DNA from: a virus
Taxonomy: Duplodnaviria > Caudoviricetes
Reading direction: 5' to 3' (one strand)
IMG/VR virus record: IMGVR_UViG_2912723979_000001
Span: 23,894-87,893 of that record
Length of the DNA: 64,000 bases
Shown: in pieces, positions 6,651-56,887 of the stretch
How the letters are laid out: each line of letters opens with the position of its first letter
How positions within the stretch are numbered: position 1 is the stretch's first letter
Notes under the pieces: model-generated
Seen by the model: the letters and a program-made list of their open reading frames with translations, nothing else
Told to the model about the DNA's origin: nothing
Databases searched by the model: none
Translations under genes and position numbers: made by a program

Positions 6651-7576
6651 CCATGGCCACCTGCCGCGGAATCGACGTAAGCGCCTACCAGGGCACCCAG
6701 GACTGGACAGCGTGGAAGAAGCAGGGCGTCGTCTTCGCCTTCGCCAAGGCGTCCGAGGGGCAGAGCACTCACGACCCGAAGTTCGCCACCCACATCAAGG
6801 GCATCAAGGCCGCCGACCTCGTCCCGGGCGGCTACCACTTCGCGTGGCCGAACCAAGACCCGCGCAAGGAGGCCGCGAACTACATTGCCGCGGTCAAGGG
6901 GGTCGCGGGCAAGGGCTTCTGTCACTGGCTCGACCTGGAGCGCTACAGCGACGGCCGGAACTACCGCGGTAAGAGCGACGCGCAGATCCGCGACTGGGTC
7001 ACCACGTGGCTCGCCGCTGTGCGCACGGCGTTCCCCGGGCAGCGCGTCGGCGTCTACACGAGCGCCGACGACCTCGCCAAGGGCCACGTGCCGTCTGGAA
7101 CGCCGCTCTGGTACCCGGCCTACCCGGGATCGTCCGTGGACACCTTCACGGAGGCGGAAGGACACTCGAAGCCCAAGCCCAGCGGCTGGACGCCGCTCAT
7201 CTGGCAGTTCACCTCGGATCCCGCGGGTCCCACCCGCATCGACCAGTCCATCGCCTACATGTTCGCGGCCGACTTCCGCGCCTGGGCCGGCAGCGCGTCG
7301 GCGCCCGCACCGAAGCCAGCCTCGAAGTACGAGCCGTTCCCCGGTGCCGGCTGGTTCACGATGGGCCGCAAGAGCCCGATCGTCGCCGCGATGCACGACC
7401 GGCTTGTCGCTGTGGGCTGCAACCACTACCAGTCCTCGAAGAACAAGGACGTCATCGGCTCCGGCGACAAGGCGAGCTACGAGGCGTGGCAGCGCAAGTG
7501 CGGCTTCACCGGTGCCGCCGCCACCTGGCCGCCCGGCAAGACCACCTGGGACAAGCTTCACGTCCCCAACGTCTGA
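6647..7576 (+). CDS. Endolysin, GH25 muramidase with C-terminal wall-binding domain
   Basis: GIDVSAYQG, KASEG, GGYHF, WLDLE, WQFTS motifs of GH25. Confidence 0.9.
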   Translation: MTMATCRGIDVSAYQGTQDWTAWKKQGVVFAFAKASEGQSTHDPKFATHIKGIKAADLVPGGYHFAWPNQDPRKEAANYIAAVKGVAGKGFCHWLDLERYSDGRNYRGKSDAQIRDWVTTWLAAVRTAFPGQRVGVYTSADDLAKGHVPSGTPLWYPAYPGSSVDTFTEAEGHSKPKPSGWTPLIWQFTSDPAGPTRIDQSIAYMFAADFRAWAGSASAPAPKPASKYEPFPGAGWFTMGRKSPIVAAMHDRLVAVGCNHYQSSKNKDVIGSGDKASYEAWQRKCGFTGAAATWPPGKTTWDKLHVPNV

Positions 7577-8360: not shown

Positions 8361-9034
8361 CTCACCCGAGGTCTGGCAGCCGGGTGGAGGCACGCAAGCG
8401 TCACCGGCGAGGGAACTGGATCGCTGCTGCGGCGATCGTCATCGCGGGCGGCGCCCTGGCGGCGGTCGTCACCGCCTTCTTCACGCTGTCTCAGCAACTG
8501 GAGCGGGCCAACCACGCCCGGGATCTACTGGCGGCTCAGGTGCAGCAGCTCGGCGGTACCCCGGTGGCCGGCCCACCAGGATCGCGGGGCACCCCCGGGG
8601 CTACCGGATTGGTCGGCCCGCCCGGCCCTGCGGGACCTTCCGGCCGGCCGGGGGAGTCCGGGAAGCCGGGCAAGCCCGCGCCCACCATCACCCCAAGCCC
8701 CGGGCCCTCAGGCCCGACGGGTCCGGCAGGGGCACCCGGAGCCGACTCCACCCTCCCCGGGCCGACCGGACCGGAGGGACAGCCCGGAGCCTCCGGAGCG
8801 CCCGGCCGCGACGGGGCGAACGGGGCGCCTCCGTCGTCGTGGACGTACAGCGACGAGTACGGGAATACCTACGAGTGCGTGCCGGTCAGCGACTTCGACC
8901 CGAGCGACCCGCGGTACCGGTGCACACAGACATCCACCGCGTCCCCCACCACGTCGCCGGCGCCACCAAGCTCGTCGGATCCTGCCCCGTCGCCCAGCTC
9001 ACTCGCTCCGCTGGGCCTCGCACCTCGGTTGTAG
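8357..9034 (+). CDS. Membrane-anchored collagen-like protein
   Basis: ATGA overlap; N-terminal TM, long Gly-X-Y run, small two-Cys C-terminal domain. Confidence 0.75.
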
Positions 9035-11990: not shown

Positions 11991-13019
11991 GTGGCCGACA
12001 ACCTGCCTGCCAGACTCAGTGAACCCGCGCTCCTGCCCCATCAGTTCGACGACCAGCTCCGCGCCCGGCTCGCCGCCCTCGACGCCGCCTCCGACACCCA
12101 CGCCGACGACCAACGCCCCGGCAACACCACCCGCGCCTACAACGCCGACTGGAAAACCTGGGAAGCCTTCTGCACCCAGCTCCAGATCCCCACCACTGCC
12201 GCCACCCGCGGCACCCTCCGTGCGTTCGTCGACTACCTGTGGAACCGGGAACAGCGTGCCTACTCCACCATCGACCGCAAACTCGCCGGGGTCACCGTCA
12301 AGCTCCGCAAGGAGTACAAGGTCATTGTCGACCCCGAGGCCACGAAGGCGGCAAGGGAGTTGCTGAAGGACTACGCCAAGCAGGCCGCGGCCGCCGAGGA
12401 ACCCGCGCGCGGCCGCGGGAAGGCGCCCGCCCTCCGCCTCGTCACCCTCCGAGAGATCGTCGCCAAGTGCGACACCGACATCTTCGGCCTCCGCGACCGC
12501 GCCATGCTCCTCCTCGGCTTCTCCATCGCCGCCCGCCGCGCCGAACTCGCCGGCCTCCGCCTGCGGAACATCCGGCCCGACGACAACGGCCTCCTGGTCC
12601 ACGTCGCCGTCTCCAAGACCGCCCCCCGCACCGTCCCCGTCCCCTACGGCCAGAACCCCGAGACCTGCCCCGTCCGCGCCTGGCATGCCTGGGTCGACGC
12701 CGCCCGCATCACCGACCCGGACCGGCACGCGTTCCGCCGCATCCACCACACCGGGAAGGTGCAGCCCCAGGGCCTCAGCCCTCAGCGCGCCGGCGACATC
12801 ATCACCGCTGCCGGGCTCCGTGCCGGATGCGAGGACCTCTTCACCGGCCACTCCGTCCGCTCCGGCCTCGCCACCGAAGCACGCCGCGCCGGGAAGGACC
12901 GCAAGGCCATCGCCGCGATCACCGGCCACAAGAAAGGCTCGAAGGTCCTGGACGGCTACATGCAGATCGTCGACCAGTGGGACGAGAAGGACAACGCCCT
13001 GATCGGACTCGGCCTCTGA
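11991..13019 (+). CDS. Tyrosine recombinase (Cre/resolvase-like)
   Basis: NTTRAYNADW N-domain; RDRAMLLLGFSIAARRAEL (R), SKT (K), GHSVRSG (HxxR), TGH, DGY (Y) all present. Confidence 0.9.
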   Translation: MADNLPARLSEPALLPHQFDDQLRARLAALDAASDTHADDQRPGNTTRAYNADWKTWEAFCTQLQIPTTAATRGTLRAFVDYLWNREQRAYSTIDRKLAGVTVKLRKEYKVIVDPEATKAARELLKDYAKQAAAAEEPARGRGKAPALRLVTLREIVAKCDTDIFGLRDRAMLLLGFSIAARRAELAGLRLRNIRPDDNGLLVHVAVSKTAPRTVPVPYGQNPETCPVRAWHAWVDAARITDPDRHAFRRIHHTGKVQPQGLSPQRAGDIITAAGLRAGCEDLFTGHSVRSGLATEARRAGKDRKAIAAITGHKKGSKVLDGYMQIVDQWDEKDNALIGLGL

Positions 13020-24734: not shown

Positions 24735-24961
24735 CGATTGCTGGGCGGGAGATTCCTCGACCGCCCTGGCCGCTTTCCCGGTCTGGTGCGCCAACACCTT
24801 CCGGGCCTTGCGGCCCCGTACCACGGCTCAGCACGCCAATGCCGAGCTAAGGCCCACCGGGCGCCAACCCGAGTGAGCGAACTTCCTGGTTCTGCCCGAA
24901 CCACTCCGGTCACCGAGGGGCTTTCGCATGCCCTCTCACTTATCCGAAGACGAGGTCCATA

Positions 24962-26293
24962 GTGCCGTACGCGCACCCTTCTTGTCAGCTTGGCGATCCC
25001 GCCACGGGCGATTCGCGGCTTATCTCCCCCCGCACGGGCGACACCCCGTGCCCCCACACGTCACACGACACGCACACCCCCACCACCAGAATCGAACAGC
25101 CGATCGATTACAGTGCAGACCAGGCAGCTCTCGTCCGCGGCACCTGCCAGGAGGTGTCCCACACTAAGTCGCGACGGAGCGGCCCGCGTCGGTGGCGTCG
25201 CGCGGTCCGGTGGCTGATCGCAGCCGGCCTCCACACCCGTGCGAACGCCACCACGCTCACCGTCGCCGACGACCTCGCTGACCGCATGGACTACGACACC
25301 GGGCACGTTCGCTACTGCCTGGACGAGATGGTCGCCCGCCTCGGCATCTCCCGGGCCTCCGTGAAGCGGCACATCGGGTACCTCCGCGAACTCGGCGCGC
25401 TCGCCTGGGTCCAGCACGGCACCCGGACGAACATCCGCCGCGCGATGGGGCTCAAGGGCTACGCCGCCACCGCCACCGTGTACGCCGCCGTCATCCCCCC
25501 CGTGTACGACCACGCCATGGGCCACCGCATCGTCGGCACCGGCTACACGGCCCGGATCATCATCGACCAGCGCGGCCAAGCCCCGGCCCAAAACCGGGTT
25601 TTGAACCACGTCCCGCGGCAGTCCAACCCTGTGGATAACCCGCCTGTGGAAAACCCCGCTCCGGAGGGCCTTGAGCCCCCTTCCCTTACCTGGGTAGAGG
25701 AAGAGGGAAAGCTGAAGGTAGTGGGGGGTAGTAACTACACCTCGCACGCTCGGCCGCCGAAACCGCGGATCCCCCACCAGAGCAGCTACATCAACGGCCG
25801 GCCCCGGACCGCACTCGACGTCCAGAAGGCCAGCAAGACGACCCGGCTGGTGCGTGCCCTCGTGCCCTGGGTCCAGTCGGTGCCGCTGCGGCCCTTGGAG
25901 TTCGTGCTCCGCCCGTGGACCGACCGCGGCCTGGACGCCTACCAGATCGCTGCCGACCTCAACGGCATGTGCTCCGGGATGCGCTGGCGGCCGAAGAACC
26001 CGATCGCGTTCCTCCGCGCCCGCCTCAACGCCGAAGCCGAGCAGCGGCAGGAGACGCAGGCCGCGCAGGAAGCCGCCGCCCGCTGGGAGCAGGAGCACTG
26101 CGCCGAGGGCGCCTTCCAGGGCAGCTACAGCACCCGCATCGACATCCTCGCCGCGAACCGGCAGGGCCTGGACCGCCTCGTCGCCACCAGCCGTGCCCGC
26201 GGCTGGGACGACCTGTCCGGCGCCAACGACGACACCGCCACCTGGGATGCCGAAGCGGACATCCTCGCCTTCCTCAACGGGAGCCCCTCATGA
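24962..26293 (+). CDS. Rep-like winged-helix protein (putative plasmid-type initiator); start uncertain
   Basis: YCLDEMVARLGISRASVKRHIGYLRELGAL wHTH; internal DnaA boxes; adjacent to DciA and par genes. Confidence 0.65.
   Translation: MPYAHPSCQLGDPATGDSRLISPRTGDTPCPHTSHDTHTPTTRIEQPIDYSADQAALVRGTCQEVSHTKSRRSGPRRWRRAVRWLIAAGLHTRANATTLTVADDLADRMDYDTGHVRYCLDEMVARLGISRASVKRHIGYLRELGALAWVQHGTRTNIRRAMGLKGYAATATVYAAVIPPVYDHAMGHRIVGTGYTARIIIDQRGQAPAQNRVLNHVPRQSNPVDNPPVENPAPEGLEPPSLTWVEEEGKLKVVGGSNYTSHARPPKPRIPHQSSYINGRPRTALDVQKASKTTRLVRALVPWVQSVPLRPLEFVLRPWTDRGLDAYQIAADLNGMCSGMRWRPKNPIAFLRARLNAEAEQRQETQAAQEAAARWEQEHCAEGAFQGSYSTRIDILAANRQGLDRLVATSRARGWDDLSGANDDTATWDAEADILAFLNGSPS
25630..25653 (-). promoter_or_regulatory. 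Two tandem DnaA boxes
   Basis: TGTGGATAA (25630-38, reverse TTATCCACA) and TGTGGAAAA (25645-53, reverse TTTTCCACA). Confidence 0.65.
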
Positions 26294-27087
26294 CCACTCC
26301 GCAGCCTTCCGGTGTCGACCTCGCCCGCACCGCCCTCGCAGCCGCCCGCGCGGCTGCGAAAACCCGCCCCACCCAGTCGCCGAAGAAAACCACCCGCAGT
26401 CGGCGAGAAGCCCGCCGCGGCGGCCGCGACCCCATGGCCCTCGGCACCGCCATCACCAGCCTCATGGCCGACCGCGGCTGGACCGCCCCCGAGGCCGGCG
26501 GCAGCATCCTCGACCAGTGGCCCACCATCGCCCCCGAACTCGCCAGCAAAGTTGCTGCGGTCCGGTTCGAGCACGACACCGGCACCCTCCACCTCCAGCC
26601 GGCGTCGGCTGCGTACGCCACCCAGCTTCGCTTGTTCCAGATGCAGATCCTGCGCCGCATCCACGAGAAGACCGGCGACCGCTCGGTCCACAGACTGCGC
26701 ATCCTGCCGCCCGGAGCAGGGACAGCGCACAGCAGCAGCCTGGCCGAGGAGCCACCCTCGGCAGCGGTGGAGGCGCCGGTGAAGACCCGGCAGACTGCCT
26801 CGGCCGGCTACCGGCAGGCACTCGCTGCAGCCCTTGAGCACCGGCGCCCCCACCAGCCCACCGACCCGTACACCCTCAAGGCCATGGCCCGGCAGGAAGC
26901 CGCGCTCCGTGCCGGACGGCAGGCCGAGGAGGAACACGTGGAGGGGCAGTGGGCGCAGGACGATGCCGAGCGGAAGGCGGGCCCGCGGCCGGGCAGCATC
27001 GAGGCCTCCATCGCCGCGGCCCGCGCCTTCAAGCGCCGGGAAGCCGCAGGGCTTATTCAGCCGCGGCGCGCGTTCGACGTCGCGTGA
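26290..27087 (+). CDS. DciA / DUF721-family protein
   Basis: ILDQWPTIAPELASKVAAVRFEHDTGTLHLQPASAAYATQLRL KH-like signature; ATG 26290. Confidence 0.8.
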   Translation: MTTPQPSGVDLARTALAAARAAAKTRPTQSPKKTTRSRREARRGGRDPMALGTAITSLMADRGWTAPEAGGSILDQWPTIAPELASKVAAVRFEHDTGTLHLQPASAAYATQLRLFQMQILRRIHEKTGDRSVHRLRILPPGAGTAHSSSLAEEPPSAAVEAPVKTRQTASAGYRQALAAALEHRRPHQPTDPYTLKAMARQEAALRAGRQAEEEHVEGQWAQDDAERKAGPRPGSIEASIAAARAFKRREAAGLIQPRRAFDVA

Positions 27088-27155
27088 GCGGAGGGAACAC
27101 CGCGGCGGATGTGGTGCACCGTGGACGCGGTCACCGAGCACGAACGGGAGCCGCC

Positions 27156-27335
27156 ATGCAGCCCACCACCTCCAGCACATACCCCGACGCCTGGCACGCG
27201 GCCGAAGCCGCGCAGGAGACCGCCTGGCTGAACGACTGGGTGCGCGGCCGTATCTGCCCCGCCACGCTCACTGCCCGACCTGACCGCACGCCGGCCGACG
27301 CCGTGCCCGCCCTCACCTCTGCCGGGAGCTACTGA
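27156..27335 (+). CDS. Small hypothetical protein
   Basis: GGGAG RBS, 59 aa. Confidence 0.45.
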   Translation: MQPTTSSTYPDAWHAAEAAQETAWLNDWVRGRICPATLTARPDRTPADAVPALTSAGSY

Positions 27336-27481
27336 TGACCGCAACCGCCACCGCCATGCCGCCGGGGCAGCGCATCGTCTACCCGCGGCCGCCGGTCACG
27401 GTCCTCCGCAGCGAGTTGTTCGTGGAGCCGGCCTACGAGGGCGGCGAGCCGTACGACCAGGACGATGAGGATGAGGAGTAG
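27335..27481 (+). CDS. Small acidic-tailed protein (48 aa)
   Basis: TGATG coupling; ends DQDDEDEE*. Confidence 0.4.
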   Translation: MTATATAMPPGQRIVYPRPPVTVLRSELFVEPAYEGGEPYDQDDEDEE

Positions 27482-27549
27482 GTGGTGACCATTGGTCACC
27501 ACCTTAGGGTCAGATAGACGACAAGGTGGTGACCATTGGTCACCACCTT
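27480..27549. repeat. Two perfect 25-bp palindromes (parS-like centromere candidate)
   Basis: AGGTGGTGACCA-T-TGGTCACCACCT at 27480-27504 and 27524-27548, 44-bp period, just downstream of par operon. Confidence 0.85.
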
Positions 27550-27575
27550 TGAGACGCCGGTTCGGGCAGACCCGG

Positions 27576-28529
27576 CTAGCTGGCGTTGCCCTCCAGCTCT
27601 TCCAGAAGTTCGCGCACCGCACTCTCCAGCTCCGCGGCCTCCCTGCGCGCCTGCTCCAAATCGTTCTGCGCGAGGGACCGGATACGCTCCACCGCCTTCA
27701 GTGACTCGCTCGGCGGAGCCGTCACCTCCTTCGGCTTCGCGGGTTTGCTGACCTCTAGCACCGACTCCAGCACCTTCGGCGGCGCGAACCCGAGGAACGT
27801 TGCCGCCTCCTTCAACGCCGTGTCGGTGACGTTCCCGTGCCGAGCGGCCTCCTGCCAGGTCTGCCGCACCGCGTCCACGCCATGGGTGTCGAGGATCGGC
27901 ACCAGCACACGCAGCGGCCGCTCCTTTAGCTCCTGCGTCGTGATGTCCTCGAGGGCCTGGGCGACACCGAGAACTCGGATGATGTTGTTTGCCTGGTGCT
28001 TCTTGATCCCGAAGCGGGCATCGGTCAGTTCACCGAAGGTGTCGAAGCCGGCCGTCTTATGCAGCTCCTCGTCCTTCAGAGCTTGCAGTCGCAGACCCAG
28101 CCCGATCAGCTTCTGCTGCTCGGCACGCTCATGGTTGGCGCGGGCCGCATACTGCACGGCAAGGATCCCGCGGGAGTAGAACTCCAGGCGCTCCTGCGGG
28201 TCACTGCTCTCCGGCTTGGTGAACTCCGGCATGGGCAGATACCCGGAAGCAGTTGCCCGGGCAGGTGCGGCAGGACGAGCCGCGGTCCCTGCAGCCGCTG
28301 CCGGCTCTGAGCCGAGCTGTGCGCCTTCTGCCGGCTCTGCGGCAGCAGGTGCCGGAACGAGGGGAACGGGCGCGGCTGCGGGTGTGGGTGGTTGGGCCTG
28401 CGCCTGACGGCGTTGCGCTTGTTCCTCCTCCCACCTCCGCATCTGCTCCTCACGGTCACCGGTGGACGAGGTAACCGCTCCGCCGACAACTGGTACGACA
28501 GGGGCGTCCTTCGGTTTGTACTTGCTCAC
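27576..28529 (-). CDS. ParA partner / centromere-binding candidate (non-canonical ParB)
   Basis: Coupled to parA; disordered N-terminus, GFDTFGELTDARFGIKKHQANNII HTH-like, C-terminal coiled coil; no GxxR CTPase motif seen. Confidence 0.6.
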   Translation of the reverse strand: MSKYKPKDAPVVPVVGGAVTSSTGDREEQMRRWEEEQAQRRQAQAQPPTPAAAPVPLVPAPAAAEPAEGAQLGSEPAAAAGTAARPAAPARATASGYLPMPEFTKPESSDPQERLEFYSRGILAVQYAARANHERAEQQKLIGLGLRLQALKDEELHKTAGFDTFGELTDARFGIKKHQANNIIRVLGVAQALEDITTQELKERPLRVLVPILDTHGVDAVRQTWQEAARHGNVTDTALKEAATFLGFAPPKVLESVLEVSKPAKPKEVTAPPSESLKAVERIRSLAQNDLEQARREAAELESAVRELLEELEGNAS

Positions 28530-29671
28530 GCCGTCAGCTCCTTCGCCAACGCCCGCATCACTTCGGCGTGCTGGGAGTCCGGCGCGTAGTCCAGCAGCGG
28601 CACCTCATAGTCGGACGCTTCACGGCCCTCGACTGCATCCTTCAGCGTGGCGAGCGTGCCCGGCGTGGTTAGTTCCTGCCAGCCCTCGTAGAAGGCCCTC
28701 ATCACGGTGCCCTTGCGGGAGTCGTAGGCGTTGACGACGAAGCCAAGCTGGTCGACGACCGCGCCCGTGCGCTTCTCGACGGTGTCGATCTGCCGGGACA
28801 GCAGCCCGTACGCCTTGAAGCTGGACTTGTCCGACCACACCGGGATCAGGATCCCGGATCGCTCGATCAGCTCGCCCGGCCGGCGCTGCACGTAGTGGAT
28901 GGCGAGGTCCATGGCGAGACCCAGGTTCGGCGGGCCGTCCAGGACGATGACGTCGTAGTCCTGCTCGATCGGGGCGAGCGCGTTGATGAGGGCGCGGTCA
29001 CGGCCGATCTGCATCACGGCCAGGTCGGCATCCATGAGGAAGGCGTCCTCGTCCGCGGGCAGCACGTGGAGGCGTCCGCCGAACCGGTCGTGAGGGAGTG
29101 CGACGAGGGAGCGGGCGATGTGCTTCTCGGCCTTGCCCGTCATGTGCCGCAGCAGGGACTCGCCGCCCTCGGGGATGCCCTCGATCTGCAGCCGGGACGA
29201 CAGGTGGCCCTGGGGGTCGTAGTCGACCAGGAGGACGCGCTTGCCGGCCTCTGCGCACGCCTGGGCGATGCCGGAGGAGACAAACGTCTTGCCGACGCCG
29301 CCCTTCTGGTTGCCGACCAGGATGCGCTGGACGGGCTGCTCGGTGAGCCGTTGGTCCGGGGACGGGTAGGCGTCCAGCCATACCTTGATGGCCTGGGCCA
29401 TGCCCTGGACCTTGGTGATGTGCCGTTCCTCGCAGGCGTCGATGAACCGTCCGGGCAGACCGACGGGCAGGAAGACGCCCCACGACTTGGCGCCCTGGAC
29501 GTCCGCTTCAGGGGCATTGGGTGTGTCGAGCCAGAGGCTGATGGCCGATGCTGCGGCGTCCTGCATGTTCAGGCCGTGCTCGGCGGCCCGGATGCGGAGG
29601 TCGCGCCGGAGGTCTGGCGCCAGATTGACGAGCAATTTTTCGCGTGATGCATCCGCGCTGGGGTGGGTCAT
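28526..29671 (-). CDS. parA: ParA-family ATPase with N-terminal tandem RHH-like domain
   Basis: NQKGGVGKT deviant Walker A, LLVDYDPQGHLS, YDVIVLDGPPNLG. Confidence 0.9.
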   Translation of the reverse strand: MTHPSADASREKLLVNLAPDLRRDLRIRAAEHGLNMQDAAASAISLWLDTPNAPEADVQGAKSWGVFLPVGLPGRFIDACEERHITKVQGMAQAIKVWLDAYPSPDQRLTEQPVQRILVGNQKGGVGKTFVSSGIAQACAEAGKRVLLVDYDPQGHLSSRLQIEGIPEGGESLLRHMTGKAEKHIARSLVALPHDRFGGRLHVLPADEDAFLMDADLAVMQIGRDRALINALAPIEQDYDVIVLDGPPNLGLAMDLAIHYVQRRPGELIERSGILIPVWSDKSSFKAYGLLSRQIDTVEKRTGAVVDQLGFVVNAYDSRKGTVMRAFYEGWQELTTPGTLATLKDAVEGREASDYEVPLLDYAPDSQHAEVMRALAKELTA

Positions 29672-30405
29672 GGCGAGCAAATTACCAGTCGCCTGGTGGA
29701 GGTTCGTGCACTGGTGCCGTGTTCAGGGAGAGGCCCACCCGAACGGCGCAGCTCGCCAGGGGAGTTGACGTCATGCCGTATTTGCCGTGGCTGCCGGGGT
29801 CTTCTGGTCACCCGTTCGAGTGGTCGCGGCCCGCGCGACTTCCCCTGGGCTGCGCTTGCCTGTTGGGGTGAAGGAGCCGCACCCGCCAGGGTGGCCGGCC
29901 GCCCGGCCGAGGACTGCCAGGGGGCACCCGGGCCGACAGCCGAGGTGCCCCTCCTCGGTCCCGGGTGGCCACTCAGCGACTCTCCGCCCGCGGCGGCAGC
30001 GACTTCCCTCAAGGGGCTATACCGCTGCGGAGTACCGCGCTTACACTGCCGTCACCAGACGGGTGCGCCAGGAGCGCATCTTGAGGTCTCACAGCCCCTG
30101 CAGCCCAGACGATGTTGTCGGCACTCCATCTGTCTGGGCCGTAGGGGCTGACCCATATCCGGGCAAACAAGATCAACGTGCTTATCATGCTGATACACAC
30201 ATCAGCACCTCAAAATTCGCCACACCCGTTAGGAATCCGGTCACAGGGCGGTGAAAACCACCAGCCGCCCTACGCGACCAAACGAATCGGTGCGAGAGTG
30301 GCAGACCCGAGACGTGGACTGGCAGCTGCGCCGAGGGAAAGGACCTGCGGGCCGACCACCCGCGGGTGATTCGAGGACCCTATCTGCCGGAGGAGCGGAG
30401 ACTCC

Positions 30406-30819: not shown

Positions 30820-31045
30820 TGTCCGCATATGCCGGGGGTTCTTGCCGTTTGGTGACGGGCCGCCCGGCTCCCTCTCTGCACGATCTGTTGATCATCTCTT
30901 GCAGAGCGTTCAACTAACGCCTGCCACATGCCATGATGGGGCGTCCGGAATCACCCGGCGTGACACATCCGGTCTCCGGCGCGCGCCCCTGCACCACTGT
31001 CCAGGACGCCCCGCGCCCGGGGGCCACCGAGGGGACAGGGGACAC

Positions 31046-31600
31046 ATGGCCCACGGGGACACCACGGACGAAGCCGCAGCACGCCTCGGCGAACTCCACC
31101 AGTACTTCCGCGAATACCAGGCCACCGGCCCCCGCGAGGGACACGCCAGCACCGCGTCGGCGAGCGCACCGATGAGCCTGGGCGCCCTCGACCACATCAC
31201 CGCCTCCGTCCGCGAGATCGCCGAGCACACCCGGGCCGCCAACCCGGACGCCGGCCCGCTCCCGGAGCGCGTACAGGACTCCTACGCCTGGATGCACGAG
31301 AACCTGGCAGGCGCCGACGAGGCCGACCAACTGCGGGCCGCCGCCCTCGAGTACCGGCACTTCCTCGAGCACTGCCTGGAGCAGAACGACACCGAGACCG
31401 TCCGCAAGACGGTCCGTCAGCAGTCCTGCCCCAAGTGCGGATGCTGGGGCCTGATGTGGGTACCTGAGACGCGGCGTGCCTGGTGCACCAACACCGAGTG
31501 CGTCGACAAGGACGGTTTTTCGACCAGCCTGTCTCTGGGGAGGCTCGCCCATGCGCGTGCGGTGGCTCAGCAGGAAATCCGTCAGGTCCGTGCAACCTGA
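31046..31600 (+). CDS. Zn-ribbon protein
   Basis: CPKCGCWGLMW...AWCTNTEC. Confidence 0.65.
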   Translation: MAHGDTTDEAAARLGELHQYFREYQATGPREGHASTASASAPMSLGALDHITASVREIAEHTRAANPDAGPLPERVQDSYAWMHENLAGADEADQLRAAALEYRHFLEHCLEQNDTETVRKTVRQQSCPKCGCWGLMWVPETRRAWCTNTECVDKDGFSTSLSLGRLAHARAVAQQEIRQVRAT

Positions 31601-54004: not shown

Positions 54005-54325
54005 TCAGCTGTTCTTCCCGATCTCCCACTCGCCAGTGAGCACTGGATCCGCCACGGCTTGGCCGAGGTTCAGGTCCCAGGTCGACTCGCCACCGTCGTA
54101 GAAGCCGTCATGGCGTTCCACGATCGCCTGGACCTCGTGGTGACGTTCCACCATGTGATCGATCTCCACGTCCCGGCCGGCGAGCAGCAGCCACTCTGCG
54201 ATGTCTTCCTGCGGCGGCCGAATTCGGATGACGAAGTCCGGCAGGTCCTCCGCGCAGCGCCGGGCGCTGGCTTCGTCCTGGAAGTACGCCCAGTGCGTGT
54301 ACGGGATCATGCTCATCTCGGTCAT
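54005..54325 (-). CDS. RraB-like (RNase E inhibitor fold) protein
   Basis: HWAYFQDEASA...W.L.A...VERHDGFYDGGES. Confidence 0.6.
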   Translation of the reverse strand: MTEMSMIPYTHWAYFQDEASARRCAEDLPDFVIRIRPPQEDIAEWLLLAGRDVEIDHMVERHHEVQAIVERHDGFYDGGESTWDLNLGQAVADPVLTGEWEIGKNS

Positions 54326-54332
54326 CCTTCCG

Positions 54333-55718
54333 TCAGGTCTGCGCCATGTCCACGAAGCGCGAGTAGTGGAGTTGCGCGGCGACGGTTACGCAGGCAGTGG
54401 GCCCGAACCTGTTCTTCTCGACGACGAGGTCGACTTCACCCGACCGCGGCGACTCCTTGTCGTCCGCGTCCGGCCGCTCGACCTTGATCACAACGGACGC
54501 GTCGTTCTTGATCGCCCGCGACTCGCGCATGAGGCCGTCGTCGTTGAGCTGCGACAGGGCGATGACGTGGCAGCCGAGCTGGGTGGACAGGTTCTTCAGC
54601 CCGCGAGAGACGGCGGCAACGGCCTGCTCGCGGGTGACGTTGCGGGACTGCTCGACCTCGACGAGCTGGACGTAGTCCACGACGAGGAGGTCCAGGCCGT
54701 CCGCGCGGGCGCAGGCCCGCGCCGCTGAGGCGATGTCACCCAGCGATGCGCCGTCGGGCCTGTAGACCCGCAGGGGAAGCGTCTGGAACAGCTGTGGGCC
54801 GAGGCGTCTGACGGTCTCCCAGCCTTCCGGGGTGAGGCCGTTCTTGTGCGTCAGGTGGTGGAGGGCGATTTTCCCTTCGGCGGCGGCGATCTTCTGCATT
54901 AGCTCGGTCGCGCTCATCTCCAGCGAGGAGAACATCGTCCTGGCGCCGGTCTTGGCTGCGGCGACGGCAGCGTTGAGCGCGAGGGTGGACTTGCCCACGC
55001 CGGACTGCGCCGCCACGACGGTCACGTTGCCCGGCTGCATGCCGGAGGTCAGCGTGTCCAGGTCGGCAAACCCGTATGGCAGGCCCATCTTCTTGCCGTC
55101 CTGGATCTCCTCGAGGTCCGCAACGAAGTCGAGGTAGAGGTCGCCGACCGTGGGAGGTGCCTCGTGCAGTCCGGGGGTGCCCGCGATGATCTCGGTGAGC
55201 TGCTGTTCGACCAGGTCGCGGATCTCGTTCTCGTCGCCTTCCTCGCTGTAGGCGTACTGGAGGATGCGCTGCGCCGACTCGATGACCGCGCGTCGGTATG
55301 CCTTCGCCCGGACGATCTCGGCGTAGTGCGGGCCGTTGGCCGCGGTGGGGGCAGCCTGCACACAAGCGTGCAGGTAGGCCCTTCCACCGACACGGCCGAT
55401 CTCACCTTGCTCGGTGAGCCGGTCGGCGACCGTGACCGGGTCTACGGGCTCGCCGGCCTTGTGGAGGTCGCAGATCGCACGGTGGATCGTCTGATGCGTG
55501 GGCCGGTAGTACTCCTCGGCAAGGAGGCCGGTCTCGAGGGTCTCGGCGAAGTACCGGTACGACGCGCTGCTCGGACTCCCGGACAGCAGCAGGGATCCGA
55601 GGACGGACTGCTCGGCGTCGAGATCCTGTGGCGGAACGCGGTTGAACGCGGCCGGCTCAAGGCCCTCGCCAGCGTCATCGGGGGCGTTGTGGTGCTGGGC
55701 GGGGATGCGGGTGGACAC
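54333..55718 (-). CDS. dnaB: Replicative DNA helicase, DnaB family
   Basis: PPQDLDAEQSVLG N-domain, GFADLDTLTSG, AAQSGVGKS, VVDYVQL, LSQLN, KNRFGP. Confidence 0.9.
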   Translation of the reverse strand: MSTRIPAQHHNAPDDAGEGLEPAAFNRVPPQDLDAEQSVLGSLLLSGSPSSASYRYFAETLETGLLAEEYYRPTHQTIHRAICDLHKAGEPVDPVTVADRLTEQGEIGRVGGRAYLHACVQAAPTAANGPHYAEIVRAKAYRRAVIESAQRILQYAYSEEGDENEIRDLVEQQLTEIIAGTPGLHEAPPTVGDLYLDFVADLEEIQDGKKMGLPYGFADLDTLTSGMQPGNVTVVAAQSGVGKSTLALNAAVAAAKTGARTMFSSLEMSATELMQKIAAAEGKIALHHLTHKNGLTPEGWETVRRLGPQLFQTLPLRVYRPDGASLGDIASAARACARADGLDLLVVDYVQLVEVEQSRNVTREQAVAAVSRGLKNLSTQLGCHVIALSQLNDDGLMRESRAIKNDASVVIKVERPDADDKESPRSGEVDLVVEKNRFGPTACVTVAAQLHYSRFVDMAQT

Positions 55719-55795: not shown

Positions 55796-56887
55796 TTAGG
55801 ACGGCACAGCCATCGCGCACTCCACACACCGGCCCCGGATACGCCCTGGGTGGTCGGGGCACCGCTCACGGCCGTCAGCCCCCCGCGCGGCGCCCGGGCG
55901 GGTCCGCACACGGTCATAGCGCCTCAGGTCATCGATCCAGCCGGGAAGACACCTCACCCAGGACTTCGCACCGACGGTGTTGCGGAAGATCTCCGCCTCG
56001 AGCTGGGAACGCTGTTCCTCGTCCAGTTCGGCCAGCTTCGGCCAGCCCTGGGCCCGCAGCGCCCGCAGCAGCCGGGGGGCGTTCTTCTGGGCGGTTGCAC
56101 CGCCGGCCTGCCAGCGCTTCATCTGCTGCAAGAAGTCCTCGGCCTGGCTGATCTCTTCGGGGAGGAACTCCCGCCCCTCCTCCGTCTGTGACGGGTGCGG
56201 CCGCGTGTTGCCGGTGAGGGGGTAGGGGGAGGAGGAATCCTCCTCCTCCGGGGGGTGTGGGGGGAGAGGCATTCCGCGTCCCGGAACGCCGGAAGCGTCC
56301 TGACCTGCGGGAACGTACCGATTGACGCTTCCCGGAACGCCGGATCCGTCGTTACCGCTTCCGGCGTTCCGGGAAGCGTTCCCACCTGCGGTTTTCCCAG
56401 CTTCCCCGAACGACGGATCCGGCGTTCCGGGAAGCGTTCCCACCTGCGGTTTCCTATCCGTCTCGGTGAGCGGATCCGTGCCAGCCTGGCGGGCCTGCCA
56501 GTCAGGATTCCAAGCCGGGTTGTCGAACGTCTCGTACACCACCGGACCCTTACGCCCGGGAAGATCCGGGTGCGGCAACTGCGTCCGACGCAGGTACCCC
56601 GCGTCCACCAGGCGGGCGAACGACTCGTACACCGCGTTCTTGCCCACCAACTCCTTGGCGTTCTTCGCCGACCGGATCCCGCGGCCATGGAGCTGCTTCC
56701 ACACCGTCATGGGGGTCGACTGCATGCCGGATGCCAGGTTGAACATCACCTGGAGCATCACGACGTAGTCCAGACTGTGTACGAGGTCAGCGCCTACGCC
56801 GAGATGAGCAGGCACAGAGATGCCGCTCGCGGGGGCCTGCGCCCGGACGATCCGCCCAGACTCATCAATGCCGGGCTGCTGCGTCAC
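55796..56887 (-). CDS. Phage replication initiator (wHTH) upstream of helicase
   Basis: GKNAVYESFARLVDAGYL wHTH, repeat-rich linker; initiator-helicase gene order. Confidence 0.75.
   Translation of the reverse strand: MTQQPGIDESGRIVRAQAPASGISVPAHLGVGADLVHSLDYVVMLQVMFNLASGMQSTPMTVWKQLHGRGIRSAKNAKELVGKNAVYESFARLVDAGYLRRTQLPHPDLPGRKGPVVYETFDNPAWNPDWQARQAGTDPLTETDRKPQVGTLPGTPDPSFGEAGKTAGGNASRNAGSGNDGSGVPGSVNRYVPAGQDASGVPGRGMPLPPHPPEEEDSSSPYPLTGNTRPHPSQTEEGREFLPEEISQAEDFLQQMKRWQAGGATAQKNAPRLLRALRAQGWPKLAELDEEQRSQLEAEIFRNTVGAKSWVRCLPGWIDDLRRYDRVRTRPGAARGADGRERCPDHPGRIRGRCVECAMAVPS
56280..56452. repeat. Iteron-like origin inside initiator gene
   Basis: 35-bp perfect direct repeat at 56360-56394 and 56418-56452 plus two inverted CCGGCGTTCCGGG cores at 56280 and 56327. 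Confidence 0.8.

Follow-up and report, generated by a model that had tools for sequence, protein, structure and literature searches.

A predicted replication and partition core with an exchangeable par cassette and an acquired second replicon candidate in a Streptomyces plasmid-phage of the pZL12 family

How does a tailed phage that persists in Streptomyces as a plasmid replicate and segregate, and does it keep one replicon for lysogeny and another for lytic growth? The question is raised by a locus at positions 24962-29671 of a 64,000-nucleotide stretch of viral DNA, referred to here as the window, which comprises bases 23894-87893 of a single 87,893-bp contig (IMG/VR record IMGVR_UViG_2912723979_000001). 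The initial annotation, made from the letters of the window, had described a plasmid-type maintenance module at this place. A gene for a Rep-like protein with a winged helix-turn-helix (wHTH), coupled to a DciA/DUF721 gene, was said to converge on an operon of parA and a partner gene, with paired palindromes at the junction. Together with a separate initiator and DnaB module at 54.3-56.9 kb, this had been taken to indicate an extrachromosomal Streptomyces prophage with two replicons; prophages of the P1/N15 type, which use par and one replicon for lysogeny and another for lytic growth, were named as the known parallel. Our analysis bears out the anatomy and the two replicon-type modules, whereas a division of labour of the P1/N15 kind is not supported. 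Judging by gene content and by comparison with relatives, 24962-29671 constitutes the replication and partition core of an element of 88 kb that is at once a circular Streptomyces plasmid and a complete tailed phage. We consider it very probable that this core consists of a family-conserved Rep-DciA replicon and a convergent, exchangeable par cassette with centromere palindromes, and that the second replicon, made up of a gene termed X here and dnaB, was acquired. The coordinates of all features are collected in Table 1.

An identical sequence is on record as NZ_CP058980.1 (Streptomyces sp. NEAU-sy36 plasmid unnamed3, complete sequence), submitted as a circular and complete plasmid belonging to a finished genome; to the question whether the element is circular or linear, the record thus answers circular. 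Virion genes annotated on the record code for terminase, head decoration protein, major capsid protein, HK97 gp10, tape measure protein, tail proteins and a GH25 lysin. This module occupies 6.9-31.5 kb of the record, so that most of its genes lie upstream of the window, and only distal tail genes and the lysin gene are found within it, at window 1-7.6 kb. CheckV estimates the completeness as a virus at 97% for the copy of the record in the virus collection. The circular deposit, the full virion gene set and the CheckV estimate together support the view that the element is an extrachromosomal prophage, i.e. a phage-plasmid, of Streptomyces. Megablast searches identified 66 related plasmid records, among them pSAM1 from S. 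ambofaciens; 62 of the 66 come from Streptomyces and most of those listed measure 85-94 kb. In the phage collection, Streptomyces phage ZL12 was the sole match. Contigs with homologues of Rep or of the partner are nearly all about 85-130 kb long and none is of chromosome size. With 87,893 bp, the element falls within the range of pZL12-type elements (separate circular replicons of about 85-95 kb), it carries a complete tailed-phage morphogenesis and lysis module, and BLASTP detects homologues of pZL12.20c and pZL12.18c. By these marks it belongs to the pZL12 plasmid-phage family, a kind of element that is already known. The plasmid-phage pZL12/phiZL12 of Streptomyces was reportedly described by Zhong et al. 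in 2010 (J Bacteriol 192:3747); pZL12 is said to complete both the plasmid and the lytic cycle and is the one member reported to form infective virions and to re-establish itself as a plasmid.

The replicon half of the core is formed by rep and dciA. As GC-rich DNA yields many spurious open reading frames (ORFs), genes were called by codon-position GC in a frame plot of third positions (GC3). The RefSeq starts for rep (25286), partner (28232) and parA (29635) lie too far downstream when compared with 24962, 28529 and 29671; the long forms are right, because the RefSeq starts cut off residues that are invariant across relatives. An AlphaFold model of Rep, built from 29 sequences, has one winged helix and a helical C-terminal domain, with a disordered linker (residues ~178-269) between them. 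Its mean predicted local distance difference test score is 55.8 overall, and the winged helix at residues 74-176 is confident, so that the wHTH read from the sequence by the initial annotation is confirmed in the model. At least 485 homologues of Rep were found, nearly all on Streptomyces contigs of 85-97 kb and annotated as 'hypothetical', 'cell wall protein' or 'helix-turn-helix'; the identity to pZL12.20c is 40% (E 1e-66). The name Rep rests on gene context, and we infer that the protein initiates replication.

The start codon of dciA overlaps the rep stop codon (ATGA), which argues for translational coupling of the two genes. DciA scores above the curated threshold of the Pfam model PF05258 (49.7 bits, cut-off 24), covering profile positions 2-89 of 89, and matches NCBIfam DUF721 with an E-value of 1.5e-18. 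The domain spans residues 51-138 and is flanked by basic, disordered segments. DciA and pZL12.18c, annotated as 'Tra3-like', share 40% identity over the full length (E 4e-43). A different frame, 26312-26782, was also considered as dciA; it had no family match, and the frame plot gave the longer gene listed in Table 1. A DciA domain is encoded in 16 of 17 family records and a DnaB_C domain in five of 15, with a fragment in one more, while gene X was found in none of ten. On this distribution, Rep-DciA is the conserved core of the family. Since most family records lack DnaB, DciA cannot depend on a helicase encoded by the element, and it presumably acts on the host DnaB. Among 50,697 phage records a clear DciA homologue is present in ZL12 only, and the plasmid database PLSDB holds homologues on 234 plasmids of 53-560 kb, 227 of them from Streptomyces. 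DciA-YspA fusions and DciA dyads of Streptomyces have been noted before (Blaine et al.), and they match what is seen in some relatives of the present element: a SLOG/YAcAr (DUF2493) gene often lies directly before or after dciA, and some relatives encode two DciA domains in tandem. The present element has neither tandem DciA domains nor a SLOG neighbour.

Where replication would start is suggested by two DnaA boxes within rep. On the coding strand of rep they read CCTGTGGATAACCCGCCTGTGGAAAAC and encode PVDNPPVEN in the disordered linker. TTATCCACA is the E. coli DnaA-box consensus and TTGTCCACA that of Streptomyces. Of 32 family rep genes, that of pZL12 included, most have one or two copies of TGTGGA(T/C)AA, the complement of TT(A/G)TCCACA, at this site, with a spacing of 15 bp that widens to 24 bp in the pZL12 subgroup. 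Codon usage at this site is unusual. The rare Asp codon GAT is used in 22 of 34 boxes as compared to 53 of 558 cases elsewhere in the same genes (p 2e-13), and the codon before the box ends in T in all 34 cases (CCT 29, GCT 4, CTT 1). CCT encodes 29 of the 29 prolines that precede a box, as opposed to 12% of the proline codons elsewhere (p 6e-25). These p-values overstate the independence of the sequences, which are related, but the pattern still holds across 40-80% protein identity and is retained also where the amino acid changes. The conservation of the DnaA boxes lies in the DNA and not in the protein, that is, selection acts at the DNA level. Because the boxes within rep are held in this way, the replication origin is probably located at them. 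Two observations weigh against this assignment, namely that a minority of relatives lack the boxes or have degenerate ones, and that no Rep-binding iterons were found. An A/T-rich palindrome, AAAACCGGGTTTT, is located at 25588-25607, about 30 bp upstream of the boxes, and falls in an insertion of the rep linker (protein QNRVLNH) that only some relatives possess.

Upstream of rep lies a non-coding leader of about 230 bp, which is 78% identical to the DNA of pZL12, although the two Rep proteins share just 40% identity, and which is better conserved than most of the coding DNA. In an alignment of 28 sequences the leader folds into a series of hairpins. In the RNAalifold structure, 94.9% of the cells are paired, a value that 0 of 500 shuffles reached, as compared to 88.9% in shuffled alignments, and pairing drops to 25-55% when the partners are slid against each other. 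The covariation score is 0.166, against 0.074 in the shuffles. One hairpin shows compensatory changes at five of its seven pairs, and G-U pairs at four positions fit the rep-sense (+) strand. Three of the hairpin loops carry the sequence CGCCAA in the present element and in one class of relatives, and the reverse complement TTGGCG in a second class. We suggest that this region is an mRNA leader that serves copy-number control, perhaps together with an antisense partner. A search of Rfam with 23.5-31.8 kb returned nothing credible.

We propose that host DnaA and Rep would open the DNA at the boxes in the linker-coding part of rep, after which the DciA protein of the element would bring in the replicative helicase. 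In most relatives this would have to be the host DnaB, because they encode no helicase of their own. The long structured leader precedes rep, and translational coupling would tie dciA to rep. For segregation, the par cassette would provide a ParA protein with a ribbon-helix-helix (RHH)-like DNA-binding extension, a coupled adaptor and, past the stop codon of the adaptor, two palindromes as the centromere. A more far-reaching version of this scheme is an as yet undescribed initiation design, in which the origin consists of the DnaA boxes in the rep linker DNA, Rep and DnaA open it, the element's own DciA captures the host helicase and the leader sets the copy number by an antisense or kissing-loop RNA. 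It would be the first use of the ancestral ATP-independent loader by a mobile element. We put this version forward tentatively, with doubt somewhat outweighing confidence; if true, loading by DciA would contrast with the DnaC/lambda-P type loaders of other phages.

The other half of the core is the par cassette, and the convergence of rep-dciA on parA and its partner was found as initially claimed, with parA at 29671-28526 and the partner gene at 28529-27576. ParA exceeds the Pfam cut-offs for AAA_31 (87.7 bits, cut-off 27) and CbiA (59.2 bits, cut-off 25.4), and its deviant Walker A motif NQKGGVGKT is invariant among relatives. When compared to the named NCBIfam equivalogs ParA_partition, RepA and SopA, it came closest to ParA_partition with 59.9 bits, against a cut-off of 180, and fell far below the others. 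As all named cut-offs are missed, the protein represents an unnamed subfamily of the ParA superfamily. It has a conserved N-terminal extension of 105 residues, which consists of two related units of about 50 amino acids, and an internal repeat with a spacing of 153 nt is present in the DNA of parA. The first unit resembles RHH proteins (RHH_10, E 4.7e-4; FitA-like RHH, E 2.7e-3), with both matches below the gathering score, and no RHH model matched the second unit. By analogy with type Ia ParA proteins, ParA itself may bind DNA via this RHH-like extension.

The partner protein starts with a conserved N-terminal peptide, followed by a disordered linker and a helical core that is predicted with confidence (residues 111-246), and ends in a coiled coil (275-314). 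The core contains a helix-turn-helix-like motif that was seen by eye only. No match, and hence none to the ParB/Srx N-terminal domain or the HTH of canonical CTPase-type ParB proteins, was found in Pfam, NCBIfam or PDB sequences (profile search of all PDB, E up to 10), Foldseek returned nothing at E <= 0.001, and VIA-align gave only generic helical matches with Z <= 6.3, with Spo0J at Z 5.0 among unrelated helical proteins. A lead from the ESM Atlas, the chlamydial pGP6-D at 0.92, was confirmed by no other tool and was dropped. In the relatives the partner gene is always found downstream of the parA gene of the same cassette and is translationally coupled to it. The cassette as a whole is present in many relatives, always convergent on dciA; it was not seen in an independent genetic background, as all larger contigs that carry it share the Rep-DciA neighbourhood. 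Other par cassettes occur beside the same Rep-DciA block. In pZL12 it is a short ParA with a canonical ParB, in CP108822 a 245-residue ParA with a 373-residue partner, and NZ_CP107973 has yet another pair. The ParA and partner proteins of the present element are unrelated to ParA and ParB of pZL12 beyond the P-loop. From these comparisons, the par cassette is exchangeable among the members of the family.

The initial annotation had also placed paired palindromes at the junction, and they are indeed found there, at 27480-27548. Their arms are (A)AGGTGGTGACC and GGTCACCACCT(T), each copy reads AAGGTGGTGACC-ATT-GGTCACCACCTT, and these are the only copies within the 87.9-kb replicon. In 15 of 15 loci with the cassette, both palindromes follow the stop codon of the partner gene and are 44-45 bp apart. 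The arms and the spacer (TTGTCGTC..TCTGACCC) are invariant or nearly so in all 15, the flanks on both sides cannot be aligned, and the proteins encoded at these loci are about 63-75% identical. The palindromes are absent where Rep is kept and another par cassette is present, as in CP108822 (Rep 74% identical), NZ_CP107973 and pZL12. It is thus the par genes, not Rep, that the site accompanies, as would be expected of a centromere. The palindromes probably represent the centromere (parS-like site) of the par cassette and may also stop convergent transcription; the partner would be the protein that binds to them.

Further palindromes were seen in related elements. Two copies of GTTTTACGGCCGTAAAAC are located just upstream of the alternative parA gene of CP108822.1 (11555-11635), and a single copy is found in the junction of NZ_CP109440.1 (4972-4995), beside palindromes of the type GTGGTGACC. 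GTTTTACGGCCGTAAAAC may be the centromere of another par cassette or the relic of a cassette swap. In pZL12, a perfect 22-bp palindrome that resembles a canonical parS site, CCGGTTTACCGCGGTAAACCGG, lies inside parB (8837-8858).

The separate initiator and DnaB module at 54.3-56.9 kb is well supported as anatomy by its iterons, by the domains of DnaB and by the occurrence of X-DnaB pairs elsewhere. DnaB exceeds the Pfam cut-offs for both its domains (DnaB_C, 168.5 bits; N-terminal DnaB, 90.5 bits) and matches NCBIfam replicative helicase models with E-values down to 7e-92. The product of gene X had no match in Pfam, PHROG, NCBIfam or PDB (PDB profile search, E up to 10), and Pfam scans of 23 aligned homologues produced chance matches only. 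The ESM Atlas lead for gene X, a 'replication protein/HTH_36' cluster at 0.92, was confirmed by no other tool and was set aside. Among the iterons within gene X are a direct repeat of 35 nt and an inverted repeat of 29 nt, both of them perfect. An X-DnaB pair on a 50-kb S. lividans contig, with an X homologue that is 66% identical, has the same motif at the same place. A further pair, in which X is 28% identical, is present on a linear plasmid of 30.9 kb for which no other replication gene is annotated; here, a different repeat, TCCGGCATTGCCGGA, occupies the same position and has the same flank, CCGCAGGTCA. Iterons that change with the initiator, sit in the initiator gene and adjoin a helicase gene are the signature of a replicon, and the X-DnaB module has the appearance of a genuine second replicon, one that belongs to a different type of Streptomyces plasmid. 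Homologues of gene X occur on 61 PLSDB plasmids of 30-806 kb. The gene is absent from pZL12 and from all ten other family records, four of which have a DnaB. By this distribution, the module is an acquired accessory that is private to this element among those examined. A P1/N15-type split into lysogenic and lytic replicons is not supported by these counts (X in 0 of 10 relatives and not in pZL12, DnaB in 5-6 of 15), and it is not a family trait, given that pZL12 has neither X nor DnaB and is said to run both cycles.

Other assignments of the replication functions were considered. Rep could be a transcription regulator, with replication left to gene X and DnaB. Indeed, the Rep model resembles only generic winged-helix regulators. 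VIA-align gave Z 9.5 for Zur and 9.0 for PerR, and the initiator domains of RctB (Z 7.6), RepA_N 'MDR initiator' (Z 6.9), MCM and ORC are mixed among regulators. Rep has no significant match in curated initiator families (Pfam and others), and papers that cite Zhong et al. do not say which ORF of pZL12 is the mapped repA. These points count against an initiator function of Rep. Rep matched none of the PDB sequences in a profile search with E up to 10, Foldseek returned nothing at E <= 0.001, and PHROG yielded weak 'replication initiation O-like' matches (E ~4e-4). Plasmid initiators of the iteron type (RepE, pi, RepA; Rep_3) have two winged helices; the model of Rep shows one, together with its helical C-terminal domain. 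In addition, gene X, its iterons and DnaB look like a complete replicon and are the sole candidate replicon on the 30.9-kb linear plasmid. On the other hand, the ten other family members and pZL12, all without gene X, still need a replicon, Rep and DciA are the only replication-type pair common to the family, and rep carries the DnaA boxes and is translationally coupled to a helicase-loader gene, which makes the regulator explanation very unlikely. A different place for the family origin would be the leader, with the CGCCAA/TTGGCG cores as Rep sites or single-strand initiation hairpins. The leader is the best-conserved non-coding DNA of the module, even in comparison with pZL12, and its three 6-nt cores flip orientation in concert between the two classes of relatives. 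However, the compensatory changes and the G-U pairs indicate a strand-specific folded RNA, which is more in keeping with an mRNA leader for copy control than with duplex binding sites; the cores are irregularly spaced (45 and 28 bp), and the DnaA boxes are under DNA-level selection of their own. We regard a leader origin as rather unlikely and prefer an origin at the boxes. That the element is an integrated prophage or a misassembled contig instead of a free replicon could be argued from the IMG/VR entry, which lists its copy as 'linear' with terminal repeats absent, and from a tyrosine recombinase encoded at window 11991-13019 (+) with weak XerC/XerD similarity. On a circular low-copy replicon, this enzyme is more likely a Cre-like dimer resolvase than an integrase. 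The deposit as a complete circular plasmid of a finished genome, the dozens of relatives that exist as circular records of their own or as contigs of about 90 kb, several of them with terminal repeats that indicate circularity, and the lack of any relative on a chromosome-sized contig leave this explanation hardly credible.

The palindromes raise a similar choice, as they could act as a bidirectional terminator only, with the centromere at another place, such as the gene-free stretch that precedes parA. Some of the observations fit a terminator as well as or better than a centromere. The palindromes are located exactly between two convergent stop codons, the pair folds into a very stable hairpin on either strand (-55 kcal/mol, z about -9), and their centre varies from 2 to 4 nt among relatives, which suits a hairpin better than a binding site for a dimeric protein. 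That no DNA-binding fold could be demonstrated for the partner by structure searches weighs against its proposed role as the adaptor. As for the palindromes themselves, neither the arm sequence nor the 18-bp spacer changes in any of the 15 loci, whereas the flanks and the coding DNA have diverged to ~75%; this degree of conservation counts against a mere hairpin, which would be expected to drift with compensating changes. The palindromes have no T-run and are not flagged by a terminator scan, and they vanish together with the par cassette although rep-dciA would still need a terminator. A role as terminator alone is thus improbable, and we favour a centromere that may stop transcription in addition.

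How does this core compare to known systems? The closest is pZL12/phiZL12 (NC_013420, 90,435 bp), which is likewise circular, about 90 kb long and equipped with a siphovirus module. The two share Rep and DciA (40% identity each), DnaA boxes at the same site in rep, the rep leader, a type III polyketide synthase and methylases. They differ in partition: in pZL12 a short ParA and a canonical ParB are co-oriented with rep, with the parS-like palindrome inside parB, whereas a long, RHH-extended ParA and an orphan partner converge on rep in the present element and have palindromes of their own. pZL12 also lacks DnaB and gene X. Sequenced relatives of pZL12 are pSLE1 and pSAM1. P1 and N15 are temperate tailed phages that are kept as low-copy plasmids by a replicon and a ParA-type partition system. 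In P1 the centromere lies past the second par gene, the long ParA carries a DNA-binding extension at its N-terminus, the tyrosine recombinase is Cre, and separate plasmid (oriR/RepA) and lytic (oriL/RepL) replicons are a fixed feature of this phage. The present element is similar to P1 as a phage kept as a plasmid, with a candidate centromere past the second par gene, a long, extended ParA and a Cre-like tyrosine recombinase. It differs in that no sequence relationship was found and that the second replicon is an accessory among the elements examined. Origins inside the initiator gene are known from lambda (O/ori-lambda), from RepA_N plasmids of Firmicutes and from rep1-rep2 of the Streptomyces linear plasmid pSLA2. 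Similarly, the candidate cis sites of both replicons of the present element, DnaA boxes in rep and iterons in gene X, fall within the initiator gene, in its middle part, which is poorly conserved. The order of gene X and then a helicase gene is reminiscent of rep1-rep2, and the 'MDR initiator' winged helix among the fold matches of Rep is reminiscent of RepA_N. In contrast to these systems, to which no sequence homology was detected, the sites in rep are boxes for host DnaA and not iterons for the initiator. Chromosomal DciA proteins, such as those of M. tuberculosis (Rv0004), Vibrio cholerae and Caulobacter, share the DciA/DUF721 domain above the gathering score, whereas the gene described here resides on a mobile element and is coupled to a plasmid initiator gene. 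The authors of the pSLE1 study described synteny of pSLE1 with pZL12 and its par genes (PMC4487206), and pZL12 was still called a singleton in 2020 (PMC7157519).

Phage-plasmids are well studied in enterobacteria and hardly in Actinomycetota, and databases now hold hundreds of relatives of pZL12. The points of note in the present member are a Rep-DciA replicon with internal DnaA boxes, the leader, the orphan partner with its palindromes and the presence of two replicon types in one phage-plasmid. A Rep-DciA replicon with boxes in rep would offer research on DciA a natural and dispensable plasmid system in Streptomyces. Interchangeable par cassettes, each with a centromere of its own, would form part of a compact picture of how the family is maintained, and a second replicon of a different plasmid type, present in this member only, bears on incompatibility and host range. 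The segment from 24.7 to 29.7 kb is a candidate backbone for a stable low-copy Streptomyces vector.

Table 1. Predicted features of the replication and partition core and of the second module, in window coordinates
Feature	Position	Strand	Remarks
Conserved structured non-coding leader of rep	24735-24961	+	Several hairpins; conservation and covariation
rep, probable replication initiator	24962-26293	+	443 aa; GC3 frame analysis; winged helix residues 74-176, disordered linker ~178-269, helical C-terminal domain (AlphaFold model)
Two DnaA boxes, candidate origin core	25630-25653	-	TTATCCACA at 25630-25638 and TTTTCCACA at 25645-25653, 15 bp apart
dciA (DciA/DUF721 helicase loader)	26290-27087	+	Pfam DciA, E 4.4e-13
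Two small ORFs closing the rep-dciA operon	27156-27335 and 27335-27481	+	RefSeq annotation; coding signal in frame plot
Two near-identical 26-bp palindromes	27480-27505 and 27523-27548		44 bp apart, between convergent stop codons
partner, probable centromere-binding adaptor	27576-28529	-	317 aa; GTG overlaps parA stop
parA, Walker-type partition ATPase	28526-29671	-	AAA_31, E 1.2e-24; PHROG 'ParA-like partition protein', E 7.9e-34
Gene-free region upstream of parA	29672-30405		About 730 bp; low-GC stretch and hairpin
dnaB, replicative helicase	54333-55718	-	DnaB_C, E 2.3e-49; immediately downstream of gene X
Gene X, probable initiator of second replicon	55796-56887	-	363 aa; directly upstream of dnaB
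Iteron array in gene X, candidate second origin	56275-56452		Copies of CTTCCCGGAACGCCGGA in both orientations

Some further features of the region and its surroundings were noted. Small-ORF pairs equivalent to the one that closes the rep-dciA operon are found in relatives, one of which has a different par cassette. The gene-free region upstream of parA contains the second-lowest-GC 100-bp window of the replicon (30164-30263, 49% GC), preceded by a hairpin with 19-bp arms at 30092-30150. This region is poorly conserved in relatives, the hairpin and low-GC part is not conserved, and a sigma-70 promoter consensus scan, which included the region upstream of parA, gave no match; presumably the region holds the promoter and operator of the par genes. 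The gene at 31046-31600 is preceded by some 70 bp (30926-30997) of DNA that are 81-92% identical in nearly all relatives, pZL12 included (record 7301-7373), amid surroundings that cannot be aligned. Their role may be that of a conserved promoter, operator or small RNA. Immediately downstream of dnaB, at window 54005-54325 (-), lies a gene that resembles RraB, the regulator of RNase E activity (Pfam RraB, E 2e-5), and a gene annotated as 'RapZ' is found at record 85854-86234.

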